Assembly: GCA_029838195.1 (NCBI GenBank)
Contig: JALGVJ010000049.1
Span: 1 to 23,098, forward strand
Length of the DNA stretch: 23,098 bases
From: Promethearchaeota archaeon
GTDB lineage: Archaea > Asgardarchaeota > Lokiarchaeia > Sigyniarchaeales > SOKP01
Direction of reading: 5' to 3'
Shown piece after piece: positions 19,616 to 23,098 of this stretch. Under the pieces are notes generated by a model, which did not search any database, was not told the DNA's origin, and saw only the letters and a program-made list of their open reading frames with translations. Made by a program: the position numbers and the translations under genes. Within the stretch, counting starts at the first letter, position 1. Every line of letters begins with the position of its first letter.

Positions 19616-20605
19616 ATGCTTGATTCCGAACAAATAAAAGAAATATTATCAAACATATGCGTTAATCTTCGATTTCATGCCCGAGGAGGTCAAGGGGGAG
19701 TCACGGCGTCAAATCTTTGTGTGGAAGCTTTTGTAGGATATGGCGTGTGTCAACCAAGCTTTGGAGCAGAACGCATGGGCTCTCCTACGGAAAGCTATGT
19801 CAGATTATCGCTTAATGAAGACTTAGTACGTTCTAATGAACAAGTTTATGTTCCTCATTTTGTTTCGGTCTTGGATCCTTCATTACTTGCAGAAATTGAT
19901 GTTACGGCAGGAGTTCCCCAAGGGGGATGGCTTATCGTAAATACTACCATGAATCAATTAGAAATTCAAGATCTTGTTAAGCGAAAAGATCTTAATATCG
20001 CAACAGTGGATGCGCTAACCATAGCAATGGAAATCCTTGGACGTAATATAACAAACACGATAATCCTAGGAGCATTAATCCGTGTTTCTAATCTATTTAC
20101 CCTTGACCAACTAGCAGAAGCTATAATGAGAAGATTTAAAGAAGATATTGCTGCAAAAAACATTGAAGCCGTAAAAAGAGCTCATAAGGAAGCTTGTATT
20201 TATGAAAGTGGCGTCCAGCTTGATTTTACTGCTGATACAAAAGTTCCATGGCAACAAGTTAGGCCTGGCTTGCCCGGATATAAGGAAGTGGATAAAGCCG
20301 GCGTATGGTATTGTGATGAGGATATAATCGAATATGGCAGCAAGCAAGTTAATACGGGCTCTTGGGGGGAATGGGAGGTCATTTGGAATGAAGATAAATG
20401 CACGGATTGCGCCCAATGTTGGTTTATTTGTCCTGATTTTGCAATTCTGCGCAAAAAAGGTGATGATGGGCTATGGCACATGGCAGGTATCGATAATTTT
20501 CATTGTAAATCATGTTTAAATTGTCTAAACATTTGCCCTGTTAATGCTATTGATAAAAAATTAAAACAAGCGCCGGCTTCATGTGCGGTGCCGGAGGAAA
20601 ACTAA
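19616..20605 (+). CDS. 2-oxoacid:ferredoxin oxidoreductase fused gamma-delta subunit
   Basis: Gamma part: LRFHARGGQG, FGAERMGSP, VLDPSL, NTIILGA and KNIEA. Delta part: NTGSW, CTDCAQCWFICP and CKSCLNCLNICP. All in one uninterrupted frame. Confidence 0.92.
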   Translation: MLDSEQIKEILSNICVNLRFHARGGQGGVTASNLCVEAFVGYGVCQPSFGAERMGSPTESYVRLSLNEDLVRSNEQVYVPHFVSVLDPSLLAEIDVTAGVPQGGWLIVNTTMNQLEIQDLVKRKDLNIATVDALTIAMEILGRNITNTIILGALIRVSNLFTLDQLAEAIMRRFKEDIAAKNIEAVKRAHKEACIYESGVQLDFTADTKVPWQQVRPGLPGYKEVDKAGVWYCDEDIIEYGSKQVNTGSWGEWEVIWNEDKCTDCAQCWFICPDFAILRKKGDDGLWHMAGIDNFHCKSCLNCLNICPVNAIDKKLKQAPASCAVPEEN

Positions 20606-20606
20606 A

Positions 20607-20613
20607 AGGTGAT
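20607..20613 (+). promoter_or_regulatory. Archaeal-type Shine-Dalgarno site for the alpha subunit
   Basis: AGGTGAT lies between the gamma-delta stop (20605) and the ATG at 20617. Confidence 0.55.
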
Positions 20614-20616
20614 GTC

Positions 20617-21846
20617 ATGTCAATAGAACCAATGAAATTATTTTTTAAAGAGATTAAGGAACCGATCGAGACAACGATGATTGGAAACTATGCCGTGGCG
20701 GGGGCGGTGACTCAAACTAACCCAGACGTAATTTGTGCATTTCCCATTACACCCCAAACTCAAGCGGTTGAAGGCCTATCAGATGTAGTACATCAAGGCA
20801 GATTAAAAGCTGCTTTTATTAATGTTGAATCCGAATTAGCTGCGATTAGCTACTCTACTGCAGCTTGTGCGGCAGGAGCAAGAACATTCACGGCAACAGC
20901 TTCTCAAGGATTCTTGTTAATGACTGAAGCATTACCGATGGCTGTGGGGTGGCGAGTGCCTCTAACCATGATGATTTCAGCTCGAGCTTTTAATGCTCCC
21001 AATTTGTCCATCTGGAATTCATGGGAATTCACGCAGGTGAATTCCGAGTTAGGCTGGAATTGTCTTGTATCGGAAAATGTTCAAGAAACGTATGATGCTG
21101 CTATCATATCTTTAATGATTGCAGAAGATTCTCTGTTTCCTACAATGTTTGTTCATGATGGATTTATCATCTCTCATTCCGTGCAGAAACTATGGCTCAT
21201 TCCTGATGAGACAGTATTAAAATTAACTCCAAGGAAACCTCGGCATACCATCACTCCTGAAAGGCCGGGCACTTGGGGAGGCATCGTAACTCCAGATTAT
21301 TTCATGGAAGGACGAAAAAAGCTGGATGAAGAAAAGGAACCTGTACTGGATATCATGAAGCAATGCTTTAAAAATTTCGAAAATGAGACAGGACGCAAGT
21401 ATGATTTAATCGAAACGTTTAATTTAGATAATTCTTCAAAAACAGCGATCATCACCATGGGCTCAATGTGTGGAAACATTATCAGCTGGATGACAAAGAA
21501 TCCTGATATCGGATTAATTAAAATTAGAGCATATCGTCCCTTTCCTCATGAAGAACTACAAAAAATCGTGGAAGAGAGTCAACTCGAAAGATTAATCATC
21601 CTTGAAAAGTCAGATTCATTAAATGGCATGCTTCCGCCTTTTTCTATGTCCGTGGCTACTGCTCTCTATCCCCTCGGAACCCTCTTTAGGAGTTTTATCG
21701 TAGGCTTGGGAGGTCGAGATGTCACCCGTGATGAGTTTGATGTTGCTAAAAAGAAAATACAAGAGGTAAATGACATGAAAGGAAAGCTCTACATGTATCT
21801 AGGAGTGAGAGAAACTAAAAAAAAAATCTATGGGGTGAATGAATGA
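20617..21846 (+). CDS. porA: 2-oxoacid (pyruvate/ketoisovalerate-type):ferredoxin oxidoreductase alpha subunit
   Basis: GNYAVA, FPITPQT, VESE, TATASQG, ARAFNAP, DGFIISH, RAYRPFP and GLGGRD. Start placed at the ATG at 20617. The substrate is not established. Confidence 0.93.
   Translation: MSIEPMKLFFKEIKEPIETTMIGNYAVAGAVTQTNPDVICAFPITPQTQAVEGLSDVVHQGRLKAAFINVESELAAISYSTAACAAGARTFTATASQGFLLMTEALPMAVGWRVPLTMMISARAFNAPNLSIWNSWEFTQVNSELGWNCLVSENVQETYDAAIISLMIAEDSLFPTMFVHDGFIISHSVQKLWLIPDETVLKLTPRKPRHTITPERPGTWGGIVTPDYFMEGRKKLDEEKEPVLDIMKQCFKNFENETGRKYDLIETFNLDNSSKTAIITMGSMCGNIISWMTKNPDIGLIKIRAYRPFPHEELQKIVEESQLERLIILEKSDSLNGMLPPFSMSVATALYPLGTLFRSFIVGLGGRDVTRDEFDVAKKKIQEVNDMKGKLYMYLGVRETKKKIYGVNE
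21832..21838 (+). promoter_or_regulatory. Shine-Dalgarno-like site for the beta subunit
   Basis: GGGGTGA inside the end of the alpha gene, 9 nt upstream of the in-frame ATG at 21848, suggests that 21848 is the true start. Confidence 0.5.
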
Positions 21847-22936
21847 AATGTCTCAACCAGAACGTAATATCATAAACATGGATGATCTATTGGCAAGCGA
21901 TGGCAAAACTAATGTATTATTTGTCAATTATGACAACGAGGCTTTCATGAATACGGGTATTCAAGAATCGGGAAGCACTCCTCCTCATGCATCCACGACA
22001 ACGGGACCCGGTGGAGAGAAAATTCCGGGAAAAATAGGGATCAAACAAGATCTGATCACGCCTTTCGGATTTTTTGGAACAAAATCATTATTCCTGGCAA
22101 CGGTAAATCCCGCCTATCCAAATGATCTCATGGGAAAGGTAATGGAAGCTCTTAAGACTAATGGCTCTGCTTTCATTCAGTCTTTTTCAGATTGCATGCG
22201 AGGGTGGCGGCACGATGCCGGAGAAGCCGTTAATGTTTCTAAATTAGCAACAGATTGCGGATATTGGCCGTTATATACTATAAGAGTGAAGGATGGAATG
22301 CCCGTTTTTTCCTACTATCGAGGCTTAGAAATTGATAAAGAAAAATTTGAGCAATTCCTCAAATCGATGGGACGATTTCGACATCTTTTCCGTCCAAAAT
22401 TCAGAGAAAAAGAAATTGATGAAATCATTTATTACACCGAACAACGAAATAACCGATTAAAAGCTTTAATTGAAAAATTTGGTGCTGAAAAACCAATTGA
22501 TATTTATCGCATTAATAGAAAAAAATTACAGCCTCAATATCACCTTCAACCCGGCCACGGATTATGTCCTGGTTGCGGAGCAGGAATGTTTTTGAATCAA
22601 TTAGCGACAGCCGCGGGCATGGTTGCTGGAAACAACATTATTTACGTGAATAATACCAGTTGTACCGAAGTTTCTACCTCAAAAGATAATGTTTCTTCTT
22701 GGAATGTTCCTTGGGTGCATCATCTTTTTGAGTCGGGAGCTACGATTGCAGAAGCCATTAGCACGGCTTATAAAATTTTGAAATCAAAAGAACTTTATAG
22801 TGGAGAAGTGCCTTATATCATCCATATTGGCGGAGATGGCTCCACTTATGACATTGGATTTCAATTCCTCAAATCTGCTTTAATGAGAACAAGTAGTTTT
22901 GTAGAAATGAATGAATATCTCTCAAATCAAAAATAA
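21839..22936 (+). CDS. porB: 2-oxoacid:ferredoxin oxidoreductase beta subunit, circularly permuted
   Basis: All PorB motifs are present but in rearranged order: NVLFVNYDNEAFMNTGIQESGSTP (aa 25-48), FSDCMRGW (C119), GRFRHL, then PGHGLCPGCG (aa 238-247), NTSC (C275), HLFE, and GGDGSTYDIGFQ..ALMR (aa 331-350). It lies directly downstream of alpha. Start is 21839 or 21848. Confidence 0.93.
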   Translation: MNEMSQPERNIINMDDLLASDGKTNVLFVNYDNEAFMNTGIQESGSTPPHASTTTGPGGEKIPGKIGIKQDLITPFGFFGTKSLFLATVNPAYPNDLMGKVMEALKTNGSAFIQSFSDCMRGWRHDAGEAVNVSKLATDCGYWPLYTIRVKDGMPVFSYYRGLEIDKEKFEQFLKSMGRFRHLFRPKFREKEIDEIIYYTEQRNNRLKALIEKFGAEKPIDIYRINRKKLQPQYHLQPGHGLCPGCGAGMFLNQLATAAGMVAGNNIIYVNNTSCTEVSTSKDNVSSWNVPWVHHLFESGATIAEAISTAYKILKSKELYSGEVPYIIHIGGDGSTYDIGFQFLKSALMRTSSFVEMNEYLSNQK

Positions 22937-22937
22937 G

Positions 22938-22945
22938 TTTTTTTT
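22938..22945 (+). terminator. Oligo-T tract, candidate archaeal terminator of the oxidoreductase operon
   Basis: A T run immediately follows the stop at 22936; another T run lies near 22985-22992. Confidence 0.45.
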
Positions 22946-23098
22946 AATTTTGGTGATATTAAAAATAATTTAAACATATTCAACTTTTTTTTGCTTATTT
23001 TCTCCTTTTTCAACTCCTTCTTACCAATTCTTTACATCTATCGAAATCCAGAGTAATCTCAGAATTACATTGTGTCGGCGAGGACAAACGTTTTCCTA

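Follow-up and report, generated by a model that had tools for sequence, protein, structure and literature searches.

Sequence evidence for a natural circular permutation of a PorB-type beta subunit, cut inside the thiamine diphosphate motif, in Lokiarchaeia

We identified a natural circular permutant of a PorB-type beta subunit in the genome of a Promethearchaeota archaeon of the class Lokiarchaeia (GenBank assembly GCA_029838195.1; 4.5 Mb in 94 contigs). The gene lies on contig JALGVJ010000049.1 (C65 in our numbering), the whole of which (23,098 nt) was analysed and is referred to here as the window, and it is the last gene of an operon for a 2-oxoacid:ferredoxin oxidoreductase (OFOR). The product carries both halves of the GDG-X-N motif for Mg and thiamine diphosphate (ThDP), one at each end of the chain, together with the four cysteines of the proximal [4Fe-4S] cluster. 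As read from the translation, this order of motifs is far beyond chance and, on the evidence of its sequence, the open reading frame (ORF) at 21839-22936 is a genuine natural circular permutant of a PorB-type beta subunit. A preliminary description of the gene had listed the order and positions of the motifs, and translation of 21839-22936 reproduced every one of them.

The permutation was apparent from alignments that cross in the native protein and become colinear once the two segments are swapped, as the preliminary description had predicted. When the native chain was compared by blastp with the canonical 298-aa paralogue of the same genome, two crossed high-scoring segment pairs (HSPs) were obtained, residues 19-212 matching paralogue positions 115-297 (E 4e-32) and residues 225-355 matching positions 2-123 (E 5e-9). 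After re-ordering (residues 228-350 followed by 16-227), a single HSP extended across positions 7-297 of the 298 (E 3e-41), and the re-ordered chain aligned over its full length with the canonical paralogue on contig C91 at 32% identity. The same crossing was seen against the Methanosarcina acetivorans PorB (PDB 9bt4 chain C; residues 229-350 to chain positions 3-115 and residues 25-196 to 118-282) and against the NCBIfam PorB profile NF008819 (residues 232-350 to profile positions 10-117 and residues 23-208 to 118-297, of 300). In addition, a hidden Markov model (HMM) of 55 canonical beta subunits splits 105 members of the permuted family in the same way. The cut maps to one point, PorB profile position 117/118, in the loop that links the GDG helix to the strand leading to DNE, and falls inside the GDG-X-N motif; the preliminary description had placed it in this loop, between ALxR and NVL.

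The residues expected to bind the cofactors are conserved in an alignment of 28 orthologues with identities down to 57% (alignment A1). Both halves of the ThDP/Mg motif are present and invariant at opposite ends of the chain, the N-terminal one at D32, N33, E34, A35, F36, N38, T39, G40, I41 and Q42 and the C-terminal one at G332, D333, G334, D338, I339 and G340. The four cluster cysteines (C243, C246, C275 and C119) are also invariant and align with cysteines of the canonical paralogue, C119 with that of its SPC motif. The preliminary description had reported these cysteines and the GDG and DNE ligands in the window protein, and their invariance extends that observation to the orthologues. Between C119 and PGHGLCPGC lies GRFRHL, typical of the C-terminal helices, and the ALMR motif ends at R350. 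The old termini are joined in frame by a short linker, as had been proposed, which lies between the HMM-aligned stretches of residues 23-213 and 228-355. Both new ends carry patterns kept in A1, NIIxxEDLLxR in the N-terminal extension and R-S/T-x-S/T-aromatic-x-x-M/Q-N-x-Y/L-L in the tail. The frame described earlier, 365 aa from 21839, is open throughout, but its start needs revision: the orthologues, which begin with MSQPERN-like sequences, and most gene callers use M4 (nt 21848), the probable start, giving 362 aa. As a side observation, the longer frame from 21839 overlaps the alpha gene by 8 nt.

We considered whether the unusual order could be an artefact of assembly or binning, produced by chimeric joining or by the collapse of a tandem duplicate. 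The gene stops 162 nt short of the end of a contig of 23 kb in a metagenome-assembled genome (MAG), and the gene has low coverage in public runs (word depth 2-6). On the other hand, Logan contigs from four runs belonging to four studies match the window with zero differences, and these independently assembled contigs bridge every junction, so the preliminary description's concern that reads might fail to span them can be set aside. The alpha/beta junction and the new N-terminus are bridged by contigs at 21710-21915, 21804-21954 and 21793-22082, the linker by the independent contigs X1 (22131-22661) and X2 (22355-22695), and the new C-terminus is crossed by X1 (22687-23050) and X3 (22825-23050). 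All four runs are of DNA contigs, gaps in cover at this depth carry no meaning, and the best-matching run may be a sample of the MAG's own origin; among the runs listed for the stretch, none was an RNA run. An artefact, the probability of which we consider negligible, is also contradicted by the same colinear order in 131 genomes, some of which come from cultured or enriched strains and consist of a single contig.

Those 131 genomes, in which full-length colinear orthologues were found, are part of 400 sampled across the phylum, and this result answers the preliminary suggestion that other Asgard genomes be searched for the same order. All but one belong to one class. Within the order of the window genome, most relatives, drawn from four families, have a full-length colinear orthologue that is free of stops and 51-85% identical. 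Closed genomes with an orthologue are those of Promethearchaeum syntrophicum MK-D1 (QEE14985.1, DSAG12_00808), Ca. Lokiarchaeum ossiferum (UYP46588.1, NEF87_002873) and Ca. Harpocratesius repetitus (MCF2138868.1). The lone match outside the class (G115:C23:1999-2799, from another family) is partial, covering residues 3-269 at 78% identity with one TAA, and since it comes from a MAG with 8% contamination, mis-binning is a more likely source than transfer.

Based on these data, it is very probable that the gene encodes a functional, naturally permuted beta subunit of the pyruvate:ferredoxin oxidoreductase (POR)/VOR type, that is, the pyrophosphate-binding (PP) domain or domain VI of these enzymes. 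The frame is uninterrupted, conserved and under purifying selection, with dN of 0.12-0.19 and saturated dS (above 2.4), so that dN/dS is at most 0.07. Together with the invariant ligands and the conserved operon, this bears out the earlier view that the gene is a functional permutant rather than debris. In MK-D1, the reads per kilobase per million (RPKM) reported for the orthologous operon were 286 for beta, 372 for alpha and 314 for gamma-delta (DSAG12_00808 to 00810; Imachi et al. 2020, PMC7015854, Supplementary Tables 3 and 4), compared with 361-382 for the canonical PorB paralogues and 150-200 for neighbouring genes (PMC7015854). A non-functional relic, such as a decaying tandem porB duplicate that no longer binds its cofactors, would be expected to score at or under the Pfam and NCBIfam cut-offs, to sit on a long stem branch and to be absent (at E 1e-40) from some complete relatives, all of which is observed. 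However, the frame is open in almost all orthologues, selection is strong by the dN/dS bound, none of the cofactor ligands varies across the class, the operon is conserved, the MK-D1 transcript was detected, and each half scores well alone, the permutation itself accounting for the low profile scores. We therefore regard a relic as highly improbable.

Several observations weigh against this reading. No match at E 1e-40 was obtained in four near-complete relatives of the same family (G011, G020, G192 and G216, 98-100% complete), so the permuted enzyme is dispensable in some lineages; it seems to have been lost in parts of genera g11 and g6. The MK-D1 values amount to detection and not to high expression, because the range of the table is narrow and neighbouring genes reach 150-200. 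Seven further OFOR loci were found in the genome (on contigs C91, C23, C34, C90, C1 and C87), comprising two canonical POR/VOR sets in which gamma is a subunit of its own, two KOR/OFOR-type sets and three IorA-like proteins of about 650 aa; because of the two canonical POR/VOR sets, pyruvate oxidation need not depend on the permuted enzyme. The family is also divergent, with a long stem and a low alpha-subunit score, so a changed substrate or role is possible. Finally, the ThDP loop (residues 34-68) has a pLDDT below 50 in the monomer model.

Structure predictions were made with AlphaFold2 (AF2). The monomer model reached a pTM of 0.85, and the N-terminal extension was predicted as a strand (residues 9-13) and a helix (residues 14-19) with block pLDDT of 96 and 91. 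In sequential structural alignments, the C-terminal half of the parental chain (residues 11-213) matched domain VI of PFOR, the beta subunit of oxalate oxidoreductase and PorB with Z of 9.9-11.8 and rmsd of 2.9-3.7 A over 161-172 residues, and the N-terminal half (residues 228-365) matched OGOR/OFOR beta subunits with Z of 4.7-5.3. Foldseek TM-scores for the whole permuted model are low (0.30-0.39) because a sequential aligner matches one half at a time. We infer that the beta subunit takes the normal PP-domain fold with altered connectivity; each half was matched separately, and their relative placement is predicted from homology. The modelled alpha-beta complex had an ipSAE of 0.84, whereas the best of three controls reached 0.00, and so passed a mark that is reached by 58 of 80 solved complexes and by 2 of 110 mismatched pairs; the runs had at least 96% of their contacts in common, and partner pLDDT was at least 84. 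Since OFOR complexes have already been solved, this pass may rest on likeness to them and indicates likeness, not proof of binding. In the model, alpha contacts beta within residues 265-361, mostly in the former N-terminal half and including residues 358, 360 and 361 of the tail.

It is conceivable that the protein has kept the fold but has become a non-catalytic, structural or regulatory subunit. The conservation of both new terminal extensions and the contact of the tail with alpha in the model would suit such a role, but invariant GDG, DNE...NTGxQ and four cysteines are unexpected without cofactor binding, and the gene occupies the standard catalytic position in the operon. We consider this very unlikely.

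The operon consists of the final three genes of the window, all on the forward strand, in the order gamma-delta, alpha, beta (Table 1), so that the beta subunit is encoded together with alpha, gamma and delta partners. Alpha sits immediately upstream of beta in all 11 related loci, in agreement with the normal operon position noted in the preliminary description. In the nine of these loci that extend far enough, alpha is in turn directly preceded by the delta end of the fused subunit. A single ORF contains gamma (a POR domain) and delta (two Fer4 motifs), and the operon consequently has three genes and not four. Pfam places the POR domain at residues 24-190 and Fer4 at 255-312, and NCBIfam places PorC at 17-192 and PorD at 242-316. 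The MK-D1 orthologue DSAG12_00810 is assigned both COG1014 and COG1144, and was listed as a "delta/gamma subunit" by Imachi et al. (PMC7015854).

The alpha subunit scores 305 bits against the NCBIfam PorA_Arch profile, under its 550-bit cut-off, where the canonical paralogues score 400-417 bits, and its top PDB match is 9bt4 chain B (E 3e-54). T45, R123 and the glutamate of an ESE motif are invariant in the alpha alignment (A2), and T45 and R123 align with chain positions 30 and 113 of the Desulfovibrio africanus PFOR, which we take to be T31 and R114, the residues that bind the substrate carboxylate. The alpha ORF from 20581 overlaps gamma-delta by 25 nt; the orthologue alignment begins at M13, and the probable start is at this codon (nt 20617). 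Directly 3' of the beta stop, about 150 nt before the contig end, is a T-rich run (22937-22960) that may be an archaeal terminator.

Table 1. Features of the OFOR operon and parts of the permuted beta subunit (positions in the window; beta residues numbered from the frame at 21839)
Feature	Residues	Nucleotides	Strand	Remarks
Gamma-delta fusion subunit		19616..20605	+	POR (CoA-binding domain III), then two-[4Fe-4S] ferredoxin domain (domain V)
Alpha subunit (domains I and II)		20581..21846	+	Pfam POR_N (E 7e-56) plus PFOR_II
Permuted beta ORF	365 aa	21839..22936	+	single open frame, from translation
New N-terminal extension	9-22	21863..21904	+	short strand plus helix (predicted)
Former C-terminal half	23-213	21905..22477	+	PorB profile positions 118-297
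Second half of ThDP/Mg motif, DNEAFMNTGIQ	32-42	21932..21964	+	invariant residues
Putative fourth ligand of proximal [4Fe-4S] cluster (in SDC)	C119	22193..22195	+	invariant in A1
Linker, old C-terminus to old N-terminus	214-231	22478..22531	+	about 14-18 residues
Former N-terminal half	232-350	22532..22888	+	PorB profile positions 10-117
Putative cluster ligands, CPGC of PGHGLCPGC	C243 and C246	22565..22576	+	invariant in A1; P238 at nt 22550
Putative cluster ligand (in NTSC)	C275	22661..22663	+	invariant in A1
First half of ThDP/Mg motif, GGDGSTYDIG	331-340 (D333)	22829..22858	+	invariant residues
New C-terminal tail and stop codon	351-365	22889..22936	+	conserved pattern

Based on its parts, the permuted subunit would work as follows. 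The chain starts at the strand leading into the DNE...NTGxQ half of the ThDP/Mg motif and then passes the C-terminal lobe, where the fourth cluster cysteine and the former C-terminal helices are found. A linker of some 18 residues leads on to the former N-terminus, with CxxC and then the third cysteine, and the chain stops shortly after the GDG half-motif and the helix that follows it. Because the new termini lie in the helix-strand loop of GDG-X-N, D333 and N33 must meet in space to bind Mg-ThDP, which would have D333 as its ligand near the C-terminus and, near the N-terminus, N33 and the carbonyl of A35. By homology, these three correspond to D963, T991 and V993, the Mg ligands of D. africanus PFOR (1b0p). 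Together with alpha and gamma-delta, the subunit would convert a 2-oxoacid and CoA to acyl-CoA, CO2 and reduced ferredoxin, electrons passing from ThDP to the beta cluster (C243, C246, C275 and C119), then to the two delta clusters and on to ferredoxin.

The substrate is probably pyruvate, since PorA, PorB and the KEGG orthologues K00169 and K00170 are the best matches and the PITP motif of alpha has a threonine and not an arginine. For MK-D1, genes DSAG12_00808 to 00810 are listed as pyruvate:ferredoxin oxidoreductase in Supplementary Table 4 of PMC7015854, although EC 1.2.7.1 was assigned by annotation only (Imachi et al., PMC7015854). It is quite possible that the enzyme instead acts on another substrate, such as 2-oxobutyrate, a branched-chain or aromatic 2-oxoacid, glyoxylate or oxalate, or runs mainly in the reductive synthase direction. 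The halves of beta score about equally against PorB, VorB and oxalate oxidoreductase profiles, alpha is under every equivalog cut-off, the two canonical POR/VOR, two KOR/OFOR and three IOR-like sets suggest a division of labour, and the key intermediates named by Imachi et al. (PMC7015854) are pyruvate or 2-oxobutyrate. Speaking for pyruvate are the threonine of alpha, where the oxalate oxidoreductase alpha subunit (5c4i chain A) has an arginine (PIRP), the best family and PDB matches of alpha to PorA and to M. acetivorans PFOR, and the assignment of the three genes to the POR orthologues K00169, K00170 and K00172.

A comparison with known systems indicates how far the permuted subunit departs from its relatives. 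M. acetivorans PorB (9bt4 chain C; family NF008819) is the best PDB sequence match (E 5e-47) and shares the CxxC, the third cysteine, GDG...DIG, DNE.YMNTG.Q, the fourth cysteine in C..GW and GRF.HL, as well as the fold of each half and the operon partners. The permuted subunit differs from it in the swap at profile position 117/118, in the linker and the new N- and C-terminal extensions, and in the fusion of gamma and delta in its operon. VorB, the 3-methyl-2-oxobutanoate dehydrogenase beta subunit (NF008818), and the paralogues on C91 and C23 belong to the same POR/VOR clade, but the two paralogues are colinear with the profile (387-414 bits) and are not the sister of the permuted clade. The beta subunit of Moorella thermoacetica oxalate oxidoreductase (5c4i chain C), the second-best PDB match (E 5e-43), shows the same crossing and has the canonical order. 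The C-terminal half also matches domain VI of the homodimeric PFORs of D. africanus (1b0p) and Moorella (6cin) in its PP-domain fold (Z 11.5-11.8), although these are single chains of 1,200 residues with canonical internal order. Other rearrangements or chain breaks tolerated by the ThDP architecture include a permuted domain order in the superfamily, PP-PYR-CFX versus PYR-CFX-PP (bioRxiv 10.1101/2021.03.21.436335), and a split-gene transketolase (PMC7661550). In those cases whole domains are shifted or separated, whereas here the cut lies inside the PP domain, within the GDG-X-N motif.

In a quick IQ-TREE analysis, the branch separating 22 permuted sequences (re-ordered) from the remainder had an SH-aLRT support of 100, and its stem was long, at 1.26 changes per site; the permuted clade was not sister to the canonical paralogues of the genome and had no supported canonical sister. 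We also searched 1.84 billion cluster representatives. Among the 150 matches listed, colinearity in one stretch was limited to a few fragments and a single further full-length cluster at the 50%-identity level (P0122, at 55% identity), and the remainder were nearly all two-stretch matches of the canonical type, besides a few half-length pieces (fragments). These results fit a single origin of the permutation, at the base of the class to which Lokiarchaeum and Promethearchaeum belong or close to it.

As to the route, the permuted gene may have arisen by tandem duplication and trimming or by fission and re-fusion. The two stretches overlap by 3-5 canonical-HMM positions of the parental chain in most of the 105 members, and a profile comparison (hhalign) of the N- and C-terminal segments was not significant (E 0.14). 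These two results give no significant support to the idea that the tail (RTSSFVEMNEYL) descends from a decayed duplicate of the NVLFVNYDNEAFM strand, or to the idea that the N-terminal DLLxR is a copy of the end of the ALxR helix. A repeated 9-mer, ATGAATGAA, found at the alpha/beta junction and in the tail, was dismissed as coincidence because the upstream MNE is not common to the orthologues. Several sequences that looked like C-half-only proteins starting from the same cut (P0189, P0267 and P0256) proved to be fragments and were rejected as split-gene intermediates; P0189 is at the edge of a contig of 1.2 kb and P0267 sits in an odd context behind an RNA-polymerase fragment. At L026:15-768 (ENA contig k141_4010913) we observed a 188-aa C-half-only beta subunit that starts exactly at the cut and, in an odd context, follows a 64-aa fragment of RNA polymerase Rpb1.

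The chain order also affects how the gene is annotated. In the native order, no colinear full-length profile match above cut-off was obtained: Pfam TPP_enzyme_C gave a half-domain match only (profile positions 72-150) at 21.9 bits, exactly its cut-off, and NCBIfam NF008819 gave a whole-protein score of 206.8 bits against a cut-off of 405 bits, in two crossed stretches. Because the re-ordered chain aligns over its full length, this failure reflects the order of the chain and not its content. Half-matches at or under threshold account for the label "hypothetical protein" in GenBank, which all three closed-genome orthologues carry. The preliminary expectation that profile-based annotation would see only partial matches holds for Pfam and NCBIfam but not for KEGG (K00170), COG1013, Prokka or JGI, which do name a POR/VOR beta subunit. 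The functional assignment is thus already known from these four sources, and it is the topology that appears undescribed. We found no published description of a permuted OFOR beta subunit in open-access papers and preprints, subscription journals lying outside this scope, in line with the earlier statement that none was known; the only related cases met there were the domain-order permutations of the ThDP superfamily and the split-gene transketolase noted above, and the string "permut" is absent from Imachi et al. 2020 (PMC7015854) and its examined supplements.

In conclusion, this appears, within the open-access literature, to be the first case of a ThDP enzyme with a circular permutation inside its PP domain. 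Pipelines that depend on NCBIfam and Pfam thresholds miss the beta subunit of an enzyme listed as the pyruvate:ferredoxin oxidoreductase of MK-D1, and the "hypothetical" label in GenBank and RefSeq includes the proteins of both cultured Asgard archaea. The presence of orthologues in cultured strains makes biochemical and structural tests feasible. We think it unlikely, as a joint proposal, that the permutation is adaptive and not neutral, that the structured N-terminal strand-helix, the alpha-contacting tail and the gamma-delta fusion form a distinct three-gene OFOR architecture in which cofactor loading, assembly, stability or response to oxygen differ from canonical PORs, and that this enzyme is the main oxidiser of pyruvate or 2-oxobutyrate in Lokiarchaeia. 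Were this so, a permuted OFOR would be central to the syntrophic metabolism invoked in models of eukaryogenesis. As a rare genomic change marking one Asgard class, the permutation could serve as a clade marker independent of tree inference. Overall, with the halves of the textbook GDG-X-N motif at opposite ends of the chain, the Lokiarchaeia would provide a natural experiment in which the loop tolerates a break and the old termini can be joined.

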